Shown in pieces: positions 10,685-18,020 of a stretch of DNA of 35,090 nt. The notes under the pieces are model-generated. The model made no database searches. It saw nothing but the letters and a program-made list of their open reading frames with translations, and was not told the DNA's origin. How positions within the stretch are numbered: the first letter of the stretch is position 1; every line of letters starts with the position of its first letter. This DNA comes from a virus (taxonomy: Duplodnaviria; Heunggongvirae; Uroviricota; Caudoviricetes). The stretch lies in IMG/VR virus record IMGVR_UViG_2671180963_000003; one strand, 5' to 3'. The position numbers were made by a program, and so were the translations under genes.

Positions 10685-12688
10685 ATGCTTAAATTTCGCC
10701 GCGAACTTAACGGTTACGGTGGAGTTATTAACGAAGGGCATAACGATCAATACGAATTTGAAATTGCTTTCTCCAGTGAACAGCCGTATCAGCGCCAATT
10801 CTGGGATGAGCAAAATCAAGAAATGGTGGTATTAGATGAAATTCTGGTACATACACCGGAAGCGGTTGATCTGTCTCGTCTGAATAATAACGCTCCGTTG
10901 CTGTTCAATCATAATTTCGATAATCATTTAGGTGTCGTTTGTAACGCTCGAATCGATGCGGATAAAGTAGGCCGTGCGACCGTTAGATTCTCTAAGCATG
11001 GCACTTTGGCTAATGATATTCGTAATAAAGTCATTGAAGGTACGATGGAAAAAATTTCTGTCGGCTATGACATTAAAGAATATCACATCGATTATGCCAA
11101 AGGACAATTGATTGTTACTAAGTTTGTTCCTTTCGAATTAAGTTTTGTTACGGTCCCGGCGGACGATTCGGTCGGTTTAAATCGCTCTCTAAATACTATC
11201 ACAGTTAATTTGGAGGCTAAACGCGATATGACTAAAGAACAAATCGAAGAAATCAAAGAAGAACAAGAATCCGCTCAGGTTGAAGAAACTCCGGTAGAAG
11301 AAAATAAAGAATCGGAAGTTGAAGAAACTCAAGAGCGCCAAGTTGAAGAGAATGAAGAAAATGAAAATCTCGAAGACGGAAAAGACGCTGAACATCCTGA
11401 AAGTGTTGATGATGATAGTTCAACTGTTCGGGAAACAGAAGAAGTAAAAGAAGAACGTGAAGCCGCTCCGGTTGAAGAAGAAAAAATCGAAGAAGTGGCT
11501 GAACGTTCCGAAGAAGACGAATTAGAAATTCGCGAAATTGCACGCGAACTAAATATTGACGACGAAGAATTAAAACGCGCATTGGCAGTTAAAGATATGA
11601 CGCCGGAAGCATTCCGCACTAAGGCACTAAATAATCTCGTCAATGCTCAACGTAATAACGAACAAATTAATAAGGAACAAATCATGGAAAAAACTTTTGA
11701 CCTGAACAACGTAATTCGCTCTCTGGTAGATGGTGAAGCTCTGGGTGCTAACGAAGCCGAGTTTTCTGCAATGGCTGCTACTGCAACTATGCAGCGTGGT
11801 CGTGCTGCTCGCGGTGGCTCTGTATTCGTTCCGACTGCTGCTATGCGTGCTGCTGCTGATGGTAACACCAAAGCTACTCTGACCGCTGTAACCGACGAAA
11901 AACTGCTGAATGATTCCTATGTAGCGATGCTGTTGCCGGAATCCGTTCTGGGTCGTCTTGGTGTGAAAGTCCTGTCTGGTCTGACTTCTCCGACTGCTAT
12001 TCCGAAAATGACCGCTTCCAGCGTTGAATCTTTCGGCTTCGTTGATGAAAACGGTGCTGCACCGGAAGGTAAAGCTGAATTTGCAAACGTGAAAATGGCT
12101 CCGAAAACTTTTGCTGGTGGCAACCCGATCAGCCGTCAGTCTCTGAAAACCGTTCCGGGCATCGCTACCCTGATCACTGATCACATTAACCAAGCTGTTC
12201 GTGTCAAACTGGAACAACTGATTCTGTCTGATAAAGAAAATGCTCGTGGTCCGGCTGGTGTGATTAAGCAACTGGTTGATGCAAGCCGTGTTGAGAAGAA
12301 AGCTGCTTTCTCTTACAAAGACTTCCTGAAAGAAATTGCTAAACTGACCGACGCTGGCGTTCCTGCTCAGGCGATCAAGTTTGCGATGAGCGGTGCAACT
12401 GCTGCTGAACTGGAATCTACCCTGAAAGATAACGGTGTTTCCGGTTATATCATCGAAAACGGTAAACTGGCTGGTTACGACGTAGTTACTTCTGGTGTTA
12501 TTCCGGTAGACCACATCGTTCTGGGTGACTTCTCCGCTATTACCATCGGTGAATGGGGCGGTCTGGAACTGGACATTGACGACACTACCTACCGCGCACA
12601 GTCCGCAATTGTTCCGCGTATCTGGGTAGATCTGGATTATGTAGTTACCCAGCCGGAAGCTCTGAAAGTTCTTCACGTCTCTGAATGA
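10685..12688 (+). CDS. prohead protease - acidic linker - major capsid protein fusion (HK97-like)
   Basis: N-terminal ~170 aa carries LLFNHNFDNHLG and KISVGYD, resembling the prohead protease (S78) His and Ser motifs; residues ~190-300 are an E/K-rich low-complexity linker (scaffold/delta-like); the C-terminal ~350 aa has composition and length expected of an HK97-fold capsid protein. Confidence 0.7.
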   Translation: MLKFRRELNGYGGVINEGHNDQYEFEIAFSSEQPYQRQFWDEQNQEMVVLDEILVHTPEAVDLSRLNNNAPLLFNHNFDNHLGVVCNARIDADKVGRATVRFSKHGTLANDIRNKVIEGTMEKISVGYDIKEYHIDYAKGQLIVTKFVPFELSFVTVPADDSVGLNRSLNTITVNLEAKRDMTKEQIEEIKEEQESAQVEETPVEENKESEVEETQERQVEENEENENLEDGKDAEHPESVDDDSSTVRETEEVKEEREAAPVEEEKIEEVAERSEEDELEIREIARELNIDDEELKRALAVKDMTPEAFRTKALNNLVNAQRNNEQINKEQIMEKTFDLNNVIRSLVDGEALGANEAEFSAMAATATMQRGRAARGGSVFVPTAAMRAAADGNTKATLTAVTDEKLLNDSYVAMLLPESVLGRLGVKVLSGLTSPTAIPKMTASSVESFGFVDENGAAPEGKAEFANVKMAPKTFAGGNPISRQSLKTVPGIATLITDHINQAVRVKLEQLILSDKENARGPAGVIKQLVDASRVEKKAAFSYKDFLKEIAKLTDAGVPAQAIKFAMSGATAAELESTLKDNGVSGYIIENGKLAGYDVVTSGVIPVDHIVLGDFSAITIGEWGGLELDIDDTTYRAQSAIVPRIWVDLDYVVTQPEALKVLHVSE

Positions 12689-12825
12689 ACTAACGTAGAA
12701 CCTTCTGAACCTTCCCCCGATTTGGGGGAAGAAAATCTGATTCCATCTCAGGAAGAAGAAGTTCAAGAGGTTACGGCGAAAGCCACAGTTAAAAAAGAAC
12801 GTAAGACTAAAGCAAAATAATAATT

Positions 12826-12852
12826 AGCCCTGCCTAACGGTGGGGCTTTTTT
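12826..12852 (+). terminator. rho-independent terminator after the capsid gene
   Basis: 9 bp stem AGCCCTGCC/GGTGGGGCT (two G-U pairs), TAAC loop, TTTTTT. Confidence 0.6.
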
Positions 12853-12882
12853 GTATGTAAATACTCCATAAAGGGGGTAACT

Positions 12883-13173
12883 ATGTTCAAATTATCAGAA
12901 TCACAATTATCAAGAATGTTTAAGAGTGCTCCTGTATTTTCGGTGGAAGGTGGTAAATCAATTCGTGCTTATCATGAAATTACTACTACCGACGAACAAG
13001 GGGTAATTACAGAATCAGAATTTCTATTTTGTCGTGAGGGAGACTTAAATCAGGGTGATGTTGTCATTGTAGACGGTGAACGCTTCAAAGTTCAATACGT
13101 TAAGCGCAATGGTGATAATACTTCTGATTGCTTTATTGCTCGTGCAGGGGGTACACATGCTCGCTACCGTTAA
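12883..13173 (+). CDS. head-tail connector/head completion candidate
   Basis: 96 aa ORF, AAGGGGGTAA Shine-Dalgarno, directly downstream of the capsid gene; assignment by position only. Confidence 0.4.
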   Translation: MFKLSESQLSRMFKSAPVFSVEGGKSIRAYHEITTTDEQGVITESEFLFCREGDLNQGDVVIVDGERFKVQYVKRNGDNTSDCFIARAGGTHARYR

Positions 13174-13588: not shown

Positions 13589-14422
13589 ATGAATATTACA
13601 CAAGATAACTTAGACATTTTCACGGGGTCGCATGTTGAAGTCTCCGTGTCTACTATGGTGGATAACCAGCCGGACTTTTTCGATCCTGCATTTAGTCCTA
13701 TCGAGAACATCGCAGCATTCCCTACGATCACCGAATCCACAGAGATCCAGACGTTAGAAGAATATAACCATGATGTTACTGGTAAGTTGGCTGGCTATCG
13801 TAAACTTGAATCAACAACACTCACAGTAAACCGTGTTCTGGATGATGAACATCAAGCAATGTTGATGAAAGCGGTAGAGGATAAAACCCCTTTACGCTTC
13901 CGTATGTTCTATGTTGTGAACTCTGGCTATAGTGCTGCTAACACAGGATACTACGTCATTTTTGATGCATACGTCACATCACACAAAACCCGTGGTAGCG
14001 ATAACAAAGTTACTACCATCGAATTTAAATTAGATCCTGATGGTGGGATTCTCGACCGTGGTATTGCCACCGAAGGCCGGATCTTACGTCAAGGTGATTT
14101 TGGTTTGGGCGCTGGTGTACATCCATTCACAGGTCCGATTGATAGCGAAGCATTAGCCGGAAACCGTTTCGTAACTTATCAGGGATCGAGCGTATCTAAT
14201 CCATTTAGTGCTGATACTTCACTAATTCACGTTCAACCTAATGAAGATGGTGGATGGCAATTAACTTGCACCGCTTCCGGCGCACCACGTTTACGAGTTC
14301 GCACAGTCCAGAAAGACGGTAATTCTGGATGGGTGAAAGTGTATTCCACAGAAGAAAAACCGACACCAGCCGAGATTGAAGCCGTTTCTATCCATGACCG
14401 GATCGACTTCGGGGAATACTGA
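13589..14422 (+). CDS. structural protein of unknown role sharing a motif with the tail fibre
   Basis: 277 aa, AAGGGGTAA Shine-Dalgarno; C-terminal EEKPTPAEIEAVS parallels GDKPTPAEIGAYS in the tail fibre around residue 368. Confidence 0.45.
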   Translation: MNITQDNLDIFTGSHVEVSVSTMVDNQPDFFDPAFSPIENIAAFPTITESTEIQTLEEYNHDVTGKLAGYRKLESTTLTVNRVLDDEHQAMLMKAVEDKTPLRFRMFYVVNSGYSAANTGYYVIFDAYVTSHKTRGSDNKVTTIEFKLDPDGGILDRGIATEGRILRQGDFGLGAGVHPFTGPIDSEALAGNRFVTYQGSSVSNPFSADTSLIHVQPNEDGGWQLTCTASGAPRLRVRTVQKDGNSGWVKVYSTEEKPTPAEIEAVSIHDRIDFGEY

Positions 14423-14495
14423 TTGCTTCTCTAAATAAAACATGACGCGGGAGGTTAACGCCTCCCTTATTCCTGTTTTATAGTGAGGTGATTCG

Positions 14496-17400
14496 ATGCA
14501 GTCGATCCAATTTAAACGAACAAATGTTTCTGGCAAAAAACCAACGCCGGAACAATTACAGGTCGGTGAGGTAGCAATCAACCTTAAAGACCATGTTATT
14601 TTTACCAAAGACCGAGATCATGAAGTAGTTCAAATCTCTGTTTCTCCTGAAACTCACGCGGCACTAGAATCTAAAGTTGATGCTAACAAACAAGAACTGG
14701 ATAGTACAATTGCAGTAAATGACCGCAATATTCACGCTAAAGTAGATGAAATTAAACAAACTACTGATGCAACCATCGCAGCAAATCACGTAGAAATTAA
14801 CAATAAAGTTGATGTAATTAAACGCGAAACCGACGCGACAATCGATGCCAATAAAAATAAAGCTGCTTCCGACCTTGCTGGTGTTAAAGCTGAATTGTCG
14901 GATACTATCAACGCTAATAAAAATGCGGCTGCTGTAGCAACACAGGAACTGGACACCCGCATCAATAAAAAAGTTGATGATATTAAATCCCGTACCGATG
15001 CAACCATCGCAAGCAATGACAAAGCAATCAATGACAAGGTTGATTTGATTAAGGCCGAGACTGATCGGACTATCGCAGCAAATAAAGCCTATGCGGAAAA
15101 TCAGTTAACTGACACCTACAATAACCTTACTGGTGTGATTGCAGCCAATAAGCAAGAGGCAGCGGATAACGTCGCAGCATTAACCCGTGATGTTGAAGCC
15201 AAAAATTCAGCAATTCATAGCAAAGTTGACAATAACAAGTCTTACACCGATTCCGAACTTGCACGTTTAGAAAGCCGTATTGATGCAGCCGATGGATCTA
15301 GTGACGGTAAGTACATCAAAAAACACGTAAACACTTATACTGATGGTTATTTGCTGTCTAAGACCGCAAACTATTTTGATGATCCAGGTGCTCGTAATCT
15401 TGATTACTTTGGTGCATTCCGTACCAATGATCTAGCTGATCATATTGCAATGATCTTGCATGTTCCGCACCCATCCGGTGTTAATCATGCTCGTGGTTTT
15501 GAGTTCACTTATGGGTCTAATCCACATGCTACGGTAAGAACATACGGCTATGATGAATTGGGTCATTTGGCATATTCTCACCGCATGTATCATGAAGGTG
15601 ATAAACCTACTCCTGCCGAAATTGGCGCATATTCGAAAGCAGAAATTGACCGACTGTTCCAGAAGACGCTTAATTTTGGTATCGAGGGTGGTTGGTTTAA
15701 ACTAGGCACTTTGACAATGCCACAACAACACGGTCGCACCGCTAAGATTCGTTTGGTTGGTGGTAACGGTTATAACGTCGGACAGAATGGACAAGCCAAT
15801 GTTATTGAACTGGTGATCCGTTGCGGCAACAATAGCCCGAAAGGTGTTGTATTCAATGCTTATTATAGCATTTGGTATTACGAACAATATTTTTGCGCAA
15901 TTCCTACCGATGGCGATAATTACGATCTTTACGCTTACTACGGTGCACATACAGGATTTGTTTTAGCAGAATATCAAGTTTCGTCCGGTGGTGTTTCTTT
16001 AAACCTGTTGGATACTCCTGAATATCTGGGTGGTGAAAAACCTGTTGCAGATGAAATTTTTGATGCTCTTAACATTTCATCATTCAATAACTTTAGCAAC
16101 CGTGGAACGTTAAATTTTGGTGGAAACCATCAAGGCCAATATGACATTGAGCATTTGAACGAACAACAAACAAATGCTAAGAAAAAGTTGCGTCGCTTCC
16201 GTAGTTCCGCACCCGCTACTATCTGGCATGAAACTGTAGATGATCAGAATTATCGTCTTGCTACTGGATACGATGATGTAAACCAACAATTATTGCTGTC
16301 GGCTGCATCCGGTTTGCATATTCGTAGAATGACCATTGATGGCGGTTTAGGTGGAAACTCAGCAATTGATTTTCGTCGTGGTCCAAATGAATCATGTCAT
16401 TTAAACTTCTTTGATTATCGCACTGGTACAGATGTTCGTAATGGCTGGTTTGGCTTCGGTGATGGTCAGACCAAAGATTTTATTTGGTGGAACGACAACG
16501 GTCAAAACTCTATAAACCTGATTGAAGACGGTGAATTACATATTACTGGCGGTAGAGGCCAGAAAATTGTAATGAATAGCGAAGTGGCATTATCTGAAAA
16601 TGCTCGTTTGGCTGTCAAAGGTGGTAACTATGGTTTAATCCTTCGTAATGATGGTTCTAGCTTCCATATTCTTACTACCGATTTAAAAGATTCCTTTGGG
16701 ACGTGGAACACTCGTAGACCATTTAGTTATGATTTCGCCGAAGGTGGATTAGATCTAGGTGGCACAGCTACCGCACGCTGTTTACATCTGGGAATTGATG
16801 GTAGCACCCGCATCGAAGATAATATGGTGTTTAGATCAGGGTCTCGTCAGTCAATGGACTATATTGAATTAATCCATTGGGGTAACAGTAATACAGGACG
16901 CAATAACGTTTTGAGTATGCGAGATTCCAAAGGTTTCTTGGCTGAATTTGAACGCGTGGGGGGTACTAACGGCGTTAAAACCAGATTCTTTGGCGAAACA
17001 TTCACTGATGGTACATTATACCTAAATCAGATGAATAATAGCTCTGAACGATTCTCTATTAATAATTGGGGAAATTCAGAAGTTGGTCGCGCGGCAGTAA
17101 TGGAAGTTGGCGATTCCAAAGGTTATCACTTCTATACTGAACGTAGGACAGATGACACCGTTTTATTTGATGTATCTGGTGCTTTGACCGTGCATGGACC
17201 TAACGGAATAACCGTCAAAAACTCAACTGGTGCACGCCATATCTGGTTTAGAGATGATAGCGATACGGAAAAGGCTGTTATCTGGGCTACAGATGAGGGT
17301 ATTTTACATATTCGCAATAACCACGGTGGACAATTTACACATCACTTCCAGGGCGCGATGATTAAACTGGAAGGGCGTGTTCCTTATGCCGCAGATCAAG

Positions 17401-18020
17401 GACTTATCCGTGGTGAGGTTTCTGGTGGTGCATATGTTGCATGGAGAGACCGACCTGCTGGTTTGTTGGTTGACTGTCAACAAAGCGTTGATAGTGCTCA
17501 TGCTATTTGGAAAGCGGTTGATTGGGGGCGTAACTACATCGCTGCTATGGACGTTCATTGTCCCGGTGATAGTAATAATACTGCGGCAGCGGTTCTTCAT
17601 GTTCAGGGTGCTGATTATCAATTCCATGCAAGTGGAGAATTTCATGCCACTGGTAACGGAAACTTTAACGATGTTTATATTCGTTCCGATCGTCGTCTGA
17701 AAATTAATGTTGAAGATTACGAAGAAAATGCGGTGGATAAGGTAAATAAACTCAAAGTTAAAACCTACGATAAAGTTAAATCTCTTAATGACCGAGAAGT
17801 TATAGGTCATGAGATTGGTATTATCGCACAGGATTTACAAGAGGTATTACCGGAAGCTGTTAAAACCGCAAAAATTGGTGGTTTTGATAACCCAGAAGAA
17901 ATTTTAACAATTTCAAACTCCGCAGTGAACGCGCTTTTAATTAAAGCGGTCCAAGAAATGAGCGAAGAAAATAAACTTCTTCGTGAACGTCTTGCTGCAA
18001 TTGAAGCTAAATTAGGGTAA
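14496..18020 (+). CDS. tail fibre with C-terminal intramolecular chaperone (S74-like) domain
   Basis: 1174 aa. N-terminus MQSIQFKRTNVSGKKPTPEQLQVGEVAINLKDHVIFTKD resembles the T4 gp37-type fibre N-terminus from memory; repeated KVDxIKxxTDATIxAN units; WGNSEVGRAAVMEVGDSKGYHFYTERR resembles a T-even fibre domain; C-terminal DRRLKINVEDYEE...IAQDLQEVLPEAV...coiled coil resembles the self-cleaving chaperone of endosialidase/T5 pb1-type fibres. Confidence 0.8.
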   Translation: MQSIQFKRTNVSGKKPTPEQLQVGEVAINLKDHVIFTKDRDHEVVQISVSPETHAALESKVDANKQELDSTIAVNDRNIHAKVDEIKQTTDATIAANHVEINNKVDVIKRETDATIDANKNKAASDLAGVKAELSDTINANKNAAAVATQELDTRINKKVDDIKSRTDATIASNDKAINDKVDLIKAETDRTIAANKAYAENQLTDTYNNLTGVIAANKQEAADNVAALTRDVEAKNSAIHSKVDNNKSYTDSELARLESRIDAADGSSDGKYIKKHVNTYTDGYLLSKTANYFDDPGARNLDYFGAFRTNDLADHIAMILHVPHPSGVNHARGFEFTYGSNPHATVRTYGYDELGHLAYSHRMYHEGDKPTPAEIGAYSKAEIDRLFQKTLNFGIEGGWFKLGTLTMPQQHGRTAKIRLVGGNGYNVGQNGQANVIELVIRCGNNSPKGVVFNAYYSIWYYEQYFCAIPTDGDNYDLYAYYGAHTGFVLAEYQVSSGGVSLNLLDTPEYLGGEKPVADEIFDALNISSFNNFSNRGTLNFGGNHQGQYDIEHLNEQQTNAKKKLRRFRSSAPATIWHETVDDQNYRLATGYDDVNQQLLLSAASGLHIRRMTIDGGLGGNSAIDFRRGPNESCHLNFFDYRTGTDVRNGWFGFGDGQTKDFIWWNDNGQNSINLIEDGELHITGGRGQKIVMNSEVALSENARLAVKGGNYGLILRNDGSSFHILTTDLKDSFGTWNTRRPFSYDFAEGGLDLGGTATARCLHLGIDGSTRIEDNMVFRSGSRQSMDYIELIHWGNSNTGRNNVLSMRDSKGFLAEFERVGGTNGVKTRFFGETFTDGTLYLNQMNNSSERFSINNWGNSEVGRAAVMEVGDSKGYHFYTERRTDDTVLFDVSGALTVHGPNGITVKNSTGARHIWFRDDSDTEKAVIWATDEGILHIRNNHGGQFTHHFQGAMIKLEGRVPYAADQGLIRGEVSGGAYVAWRDRPAGLLVDCQQSVDSAHAIWKAVDWGRNYIAAMDVHCPGDSNNTAAAVLHVQGADYQFHASGEFHATGNGNFNDVYIRSDRRLKINVEDYEENAVDKVNKLKVKTYDKVKSLNDREVIGHEIGIIAQDLQEVLPEAVKTAKIGGFDNPEEILTISNSAVNALLIKAVQEMSEENKLLRERLAAIEAKLG
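14676..15080 (+). repeat. imperfect tandem ~66-69 bp repeats within the fibre gene
   Basis: At least four consecutive units encoding (H/N/K/D)KVD(E/V/D/L)IK(Q/R/S/A)(T/E)TD(A/R)TI(A/D)(A/S)N; a coding repeat, not a separate element. Confidence 0.6.

Follow-up and report, generated by a model that had tools for sequence, protein, structure and literature searches.

Some bacteriophages make, beside the main form of their capsid or coat protein, a minor C-terminally extended form by recoding the end of its gene. The UGAACU stop between the coat protein and A1 of the RNA phage Qβ is read through at 3-5% in Escherichia coli (PMC13517186), a host in which Trp-tRNA(Trp), competing with release factor RF2, is well documented to read through UGA (PMC10570021). 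The minor capsid form of phage T7 amounts to about 10% (PMC5009743; PMC1635266), and the capsid extensions of T3, T7, A2 and Listeria phages are apparently reached interchangeably in frame, by a -1 or by a +1 route (PMC5009743). Here we analyse a window of 35,090 nucleotides (nt) from a tailed phage (Caudoviricetes; IMG/VR record IMGVR_UViG_2671180963_000003), which protein names place as a prophage of E. coli, Shigella and E. albertii, and in which the major capsid polyprotein gene (10685..12688, plus strand, as for all features below unless stated otherwise) ends in a candidate leaky TGA stop followed in frame by a conserved extension. We propose that low-level readthrough of this stop probably yields a minor, C-terminally extended capsid subunit. 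To our knowledge, helped by a literature search, frameshifting is the only recoding known at the capsid gene ends of tailed phages; a leaky-stop capsid tail is known in the RNA phage Qβ, and we found no report of one for a tailed DNA phage.

A conserved open frame beyond the capsid stop codon

The capsid open reading frame (ORF) of 667 amino acids is terminated by the TGA at 12686-12688, after which, as the first-pass annotation had described, the same frame remains open for 43 codons (TNVEPSEPSPDLGEENLIPSQEEEVQEVTAKATVKKERKTKAK, 12689..12817); it closes with a tandem TAA TAA (12818..12823) lying just before the terminator. Its estimate that random sequence would stay open this far in about 13% of cases is reproduced ((61/64)^43 = 13%), and shuffles matched to the composition of the region give ~6%. 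The test it had named, conservation of the open frame in related phages, was applied to relatives collected in IMG/VR, in metagenomes and among complete E. coli genomes; these comprise 36 unique haplotypes, the counts of substitutions and of off-frame stops resting on 23 unique extension sequences. All 36 haplotypes carry TGA followed by A, an open in-frame extension of 27, 28, 33, 42, 43, 44 or 45 codons, and a closing tandem stop that reads TAA TAA or TGA TAA. The same TGA and extension module is present in a second capsid lineage, identical at ~130 of 334 positions (~39%) in the capsid domain and having a different C-terminus (...ALTVVQKKVD). Since TGA-A and the open extension are kept in every haplotype and in both capsid lineages, the comparison indicates that the open frame after the capsid TGA is not a product of chance.

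The differences among haplotypes also respect the frame. The five to six length changes (48, 27, 3, 3, 3 and 3 nt) are all multiples of three (P about 0.004-0.012), and at least 62 substitutions in the extension have introduced no in-frame stop, where ~4.5% of point mutations would make one (P about 0.06). Over the 23 unique sequences, stops number 0 in frame 0, 40 in frame +1 and 93 in frame +2; in the window's extension alone, the two off-frames contain 2 and 5. The encoded peptide consists of an acidic part rich in Pro, Ser and Glu (net charge -9) followed by a tip rich in Lys and Arg (net +6), and what is kept across the haplotypes, as their alignment suggests, is openness, whole-codon length and this acidic-then-basic composition. 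Pfam and PHROG scans of the 43-residue peptide returned no match. The basic tip occurs as a set of cassettes (window 12790-12817; relatives L006 and L037), KKERKTKAK in the window and KKQRKTKE, KK[VA]GRPPKAK and KRGRKPKE elsewhere, the last two of which resemble AT-hook cores (GRP); the DNA of the GRPPK cassette also forms a hairpin (GGUGGGACGUCCACC). The capsid genes of L031/L109 (IMGVR_UViG_2877285697_000006) and of L125 are themselves broken by a frameshift or a premature stop, either in defective prophages or through sequencing errors; L031 still has an intact TGA and extension module downstream of the interrupted capsid gene.

The stop itself, a candidate leaky UGA-A within the hexamer UGAACU (12686..12691), is constant among neighbours that vary, being preceded by GAA, GAC or GAG and followed by ACT or AAT and then by AAC, AGC or CCT. 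TGA is rare in this phage, where 32 of 34 plausible window genes end in TAA and 2 in TGA, and the gene that carries this weak stop is the one with by far the strongest codon bias in the window. The bias of the capsid gene (Pro CCG 12/13; Leu CTG 26/29; zero GGA, GGG, ACA and ACG) is lost exactly at the TGA, beyond which Pro is CCG in 0/4 cases and GGG, ACA and ACG appear; this is as expected if most ribosomes stop there and the tail beyond is seldom translated. An A 3' of UGA is said to favour readthrough, a finding reportedly made by Engelberg-Kulka in 1981, and UGAACU is the hexamer of the Qβ coat readthrough site (PMC13517186). The first-pass annotation had left the choice between chance and a low-level readthrough extension of the capsid; the conserved TGA-A and frame, the rarity of TGA and the Qβ hexamer point to the latter.

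In-frame readthrough of the UGA is, as far as the reading frames of the window indicate, the only route found by which the extension could be translated. A -1 or +1 frameshift was considered and rejected because the shifted frames close at once, running into stops within 1-3 codons of the TGA; the window also has no slippery heptamer there. A scan of the prophage for a suppressor tRNA found no tRNA gene.

Predicted RNA structure downstream of the stop

The RNA following the stop is predicted to be strongly folded. A structured domain is predicted at 12699..12772 (RNAfold z = -5.0 without the terminator; RNAalifold consensus of 15 long-form haplotypes), and from the UGA to the tandem stop, again without the terminator, z ranges from -3.6 to -5.7 against dinucleotide shuffles in five variants. 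Within the domain lies a hairpin (12711..12731) with a stem of 8 base pairs (bp) formed by CTTCCCCC (12711-12718) and GGGGGAAG (12724-12731) around a GATTT loop (12719-12723). The first-pass annotation had reported this hairpin at 12708-12729 with a 4-nt loop, about 20 nt past the stop; its presence is borne out, its position is ~3 nt further right, its loop has 5 nt, and it begins 22 nt after the TGA, inside the larger predicted fold that starts at 12699. In the long forms, an outer stem predicted to begin 10 nt past the UGA encloses the 8-bp hairpin, whose stem is nucleotide-identical in every long-form haplotype, the sole loop change being TTG to TCG in the L037-type haplotype. In the short form, an 11-bp stem with a GAAA loop begins at the same distance from the UGA as the long-form outer stem. 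Further downstream, a mini-hairpin with a GNRA loop (GGC-GAAA-GCC, 12775..12784) is predicted in all variants.

Pairing is also maintained by compensatory change. A U-A pair is replaced by C-G in the short-form stem and likewise in the GRPPK hairpin, and the pairing of the mini-hairpin is kept as GGU/GCC in L011 and, with both sides changed, as GGA/UCC in L213. This covariation comes only from the short forms, the GRPPK hairpin and the mini-hairpin; in the long-form RNA alignment the structure is conserved and no pair is changed on both sides. A search of 12400-13000 against Rfam gave only sub-threshold hits driven by the terminator.

Probable readthrough of the capsid stop and rival readings

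The reading we favour, and consider probable, is that low-level readthrough of UGA-A, likely by tRNA-Trp, yields a minor capsid subunit with a C-terminal extension. Most ribosomes would stop at the UGA-A (12686) and release the normal protease-scaffold-capsid polyprotein, while a few percent would decode the UGA through a near-cognate tRNA, with Trp-tRNA(Trp), the one used in Qβ, as the likeliest candidate, and go on for 43 codons to the strong tandem TAA TAA just before the terminator. The junction of the product would read ...VLHVSE-X-TNVEPSEPSPDLGEENLIPSQEEEVQEVTAK, X being the residue put in at the UGA. This minor capsid subunit would bear at its C-terminus a flexible tail of ~44 residues, in which an acidic Pro/Ser/Glu linker leads to a Lys/Arg-rich tip, and each virion would incorporate a few copies of it into its shell. 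The fold of the tail-coding RNA, with its stem 10 nt past the UGA, may in this model make readthrough more frequent or lend stability to the 3' end of the capsid mRNA. The closest solved structure to the window capsid protein is the capsid protein of roseophage R4C (8GTA), whose capsid contains 415 copies; with Qβ-like readthrough and the same number of subunits, a virion would carry roughly 10-20 tailed ones. C-terminal fusions to T7 10B are displayed on the capsid surface (PMC1635266), and from this analogy we infer that the tail would lie on the outside of the virion; the literature on the R4C structure yielded no statement on whether the capsid C-terminus faces inward or outward.

Several observations weigh against this reading. 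None of 173 homologue hits, all of which cover the capsid part only, has a sense codon in place of the TGA, and a phmmer search with the extension peptide among 1.84 billion representative proteins gave 0 hits. Because the haplotypes combine a restricted set of polymorphisms in mosaic fashion, they represent only a modest number of independent events. Variable sites in the extension are spread evenly over the three codon positions (18/23/21), and the ratio of nonsynonymous to synonymous polymorphism (pN/pS) is 0.68, compared with 0.77 and 0.74 in the off-frames and 0.34 in the last 100 capsid codons; the extension lacks the synonymous excess that marks purifying selection on a protein, and from the even spread and the near-off-frame pN/pS its individual residues appear barely constrained. 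Some amino-acid changes look driven by pairing, as when A-K-A becomes E-K-S and the mini-hairpin is preserved. As for a stimulating role of the RNA, the 8-bp hairpin is absent from the 27- and 28-codon forms, which have a different hairpin instead, the 10-nt spacer is slightly long for contact with the ribosome, and we know of no established case in bacteria of a hairpin stimulating readthrough other than for selenocysteine.

The main rival holds that the 135 nt separating the capsid stop from the terminator form an untranslated structured 3' region (3' UTR), which would serve to stabilise the capsid mRNA, as a processing site or as the source of a 3'-derived small RNA, the frame being incidental. 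It would account for folding far more stable than that of shuffles in every variant, for compensatory changes in three helices, some of which cost amino-acid changes, for the nucleotide-invariant 8-bp stem of the long forms, and for a pN/pS not below that of the off-frames, an unbiased codon usage and the lack of annotation by the Prokaryotic Genome Annotation Pipeline (PGAP). It leaves unexplained, however, why all of the five to six length changes are whole codons, why frame 0 is free of stops while the off-frames are filled with them, why TGA-A is invariant in a phage that otherwise uses TAA, and why the frame closes with a tandem TAA; nor does the region match any Rfam family, and nothing resembling a promoter for a separate transcript was detected. 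The RNA structure is, in addition, compatible with readthrough and may belong to it, and we regard an untranslated 3' UTR as rather unlikely.

The extension could instead be the decaying remnant of a once-fused tail, severed from the capsid by a nonsense mutation (e.g., TGG to TGA) and not yet degraded in frame, as the fused Lys-rich tails of sister-clade capsids (see below) and the weak amino-acid constraint would allow. Such a relic would be free to let its TGA drift to the preferred TAA, and decay sits poorly with a module common to two capsid lineages ~39% identical and to 36 haplotypes, in which at least 62 substitutions and five to six indels have neither closed nor shifted the frame; we consider it improbable.

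A separate small gene, translated from its own start or by termination-reinitiation into a free peptide of ~30-40 amino acids, is less probable still. A 32-residue ORF does begin at a TTG at 12722 (12722-12820), within the hairpin loop; this TTG is TCG in the L037-type haplotype and missing in the short forms, and the ORF is rejected because its start is not conserved. No in-frame ATG, GTG or TTG in the extension is conserved across the long and short forms, no Shine-Dalgarno sequence precedes any candidate, and gene callers predicted no such protein in the 1.84-billion library. Selenocysteine insertion, with the UGA and hairpin acting as a bacterial selenocysteine insertion sequence (SECIS) read by SelB, is hardly credible: E. 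coli has sel genes and a hairpin does lie downstream of an in-frame UGA, but this one has a GAUUU loop ~31-35 nt from the U of the UGA and no bulged U, where the E. coli fdhF SECIS has a GGUC loop with G23/U24, a bulged U and 11-nt spacing, and the short form has an unrelated GAAA-loop hairpin, where a SelB-binding element would be conserved.

Readthrough of the UGA also invites a wider claim, which is possible but doubtful: that this is the first conserved non-selenocysteine readthrough signal in a tailed double-stranded DNA phage, with UGA-ACU and a stimulating 3' structure 10 nt downstream acting on bacterial ribosomes, in the arrangement that alphaviruses and plant viruses use; that the same Lys-rich tail is attained interchangeably by fusion, -1 frameshift or readthrough; and that virions are heterogeneous, with a tailed fraction that follows host physiology. 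If readthrough does occur, tailed phages would have a new decoding route, carried by ~1% of complete E. coli genomes (the prophage was found in 54 of 5,426), an unannotated virion component would be revealed where PGAP calls nothing, and the locus would offer a natural bacterial test case for 3' RNA structures that stimulate readthrough. The share of tailed subunits could vary with the condition of the host, and the virion's surface properties with it, because UGA readthrough in E. coli is altered by temperature, cyclic AMP and the level of tRNA-Trp (PMC10570021).

Capsid locus, sister-clade tails and known systems

The capsid polyprotein (Pfam PF04586 and PF05065; PHROG 617, major head protein) is arranged, by its Pfam domains, as a Peptidase_S78 prohead protease, an acidic scaffold-like linker and an HK97-type Phage_capsid domain. 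The linker, a Glu-rich low-complexity segment at 11200-11560 that separates protease from capsid domain, presumably serves as a built-in scaffold and is then removed by cleavage; the total length of the polyprotein differs among relatives (584-690 amino acids as annotated). An ORF of 379 amino acids on the opposite strand (11627-12766, minus) runs across the capsid domain and 80 nt into the extension; it is probably a shadow ORF that arises from the strong codon bias of the capsid gene. The intrinsic terminator of the capsid transcript (12826..12853) has a 9-bp stem with 6 G-C pairs (12826-12847) followed by a T run, and its stem starts 2 nt past the tandem TAA TAA; it is kept in all relatives, with differences mostly in its loop. 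The following gene begins at 12883, and in the complete E. coli genomes carrying the element PGAP annotates nothing between it and the capsid gene.

Beyond it, at 13589-18020, a 277-amino-acid protein with a weak major-tail-protein match and a 1174-amino-acid fibre (Gp34_trimer, Peptidase_S74) are encoded within the head module, upstream of the tail genes. The fibre, named 'phage head spike fiber domain-containing protein' by PGAP in one relative, may be a head fibre. The gene of the 277-residue protein (13589-14422) is the second of the two window genes that end in TGA, here TGA-T with 3 open codons beyond, the capsid gene having TGA-A. A megablast search of the region against GenBank phages found no close DNA match, and searches of GTDB representative genomes with a protein query and a 22-base pattern gave no matches.

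In a sister clade of capsids, 41-44% identical and also from E. coli, the end of the capsid core falls at the same position (...DRLFL[HY]EK). Some of its members carry short Ala/Glu/Lys tails fused in frame (GTPAEVKAALKASA, GTPAEAKAAKQ, GTPAEAPAEAKAGK and GEAEAGETRKAK); other capsids of the clade end in a TAA stop, and a similar Lys-rich tail is encoded there by a conserved -1-frame ORF (DGSLTDTGAQAAPVRKPRALKVTK in L117, NGSLINTGEQASPAKVKKPRALKVK in L115 and DGSLIDTGVQKTPIKKARAQKSVK in PSS-15), and length differences among these -1 ORFs are also multiples of three. The fused and -1-frame tails indicate that a Lys-rich C-terminal tail is recurrent in the capsid family, and sequence comparison suggests three routes to it, namely fusion, probable -1 frameshifting and, in the window lineage, readthrough. 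A short 77-residue query for fused versions of the -1 tail returned 2 candidates only.

L117-type capsid ends are candidate sites of -1 frameshifting or transcriptional slippage. In L117 (2481-2560) a dnaX-like A_AAA_AAG heptamer is found 3 codons upstream of the TAA stop; L116 contains a stretch of 8 A. The sister-clade hairpin begins 5-8 nt past the stop, and L115 and L117 differ in it by a compensatory change. Further -1 tail ORFs are present in L111, L116 and Escherichia phage DCP80 (L078), and L210 belongs to the same set. The DCP80 record (PQ671644.1, 4285-10265), 141 kb long and classed in the Straboviridae (Gaprivervirus), encodes a portal of lambda type together with an HK97 protease-capsid fusion that shares 41% identity with that of the window, which is odd for a T4-like genome; the record could be a chimeric assembly.

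Among described systems, bacterial SECIS elements of the fdhF type share with this locus an in-frame UGA and a hairpin within about 40 nt, but they differ from it in loop sequence, bulge and spacing, and here the long and short forms do not share one hairpin. A stem-loop 7-9 nt past the UGA, inside the readthrough ORF, stimulates readthrough in alphaviruses, tobraviruses, furoviruses and coltiviruses (PMC3159437). The locus resembles them in its UGA, its short spacer (10 nt here, 7-9 nt there) and its long conserved stem-loop with compensatory changes; there the ribosomes are eukaryotic, the context is UGA-C and stimulation is proven, whereas here the host is bacterial, the context UGA-A and the structure predicted.

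The Qβ coat gene (Qubevirus) is similar in ending in UGA, with the identical hexamer UGAACU and an in-frame extension, and natural suppression by tRNA-Trp at a few percent in E. coli gives rise to the minor extended capsid subunit A1 (PMC13517186). Qβ is, however, a single-stranded RNA levivirus with an unrelated coat fold, and the element described here is a tailed double-stranded DNA prophage with an HK97-fold capsid. The Qβ extension is about 200 amino acids long, folded and essential, whereas here the extension comprises 27-45 low-complexity residues and its readthrough is predicted. Nearer in capsid fold are T7 and T3 (10A/10B), Lactobacillus phage A2 and Listeria phages A118, A500 and PSA, all of which make a C-terminally extended form of an HK97-fold capsid protein by recoding at a fixed low ratio. 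They do so by -1 or +1 frameshifting at slippery sites, while the window has no slippery site and its extension is not an Ig-like domain; the sister clade, with its fused and -1 tails, matches their pattern of routes.

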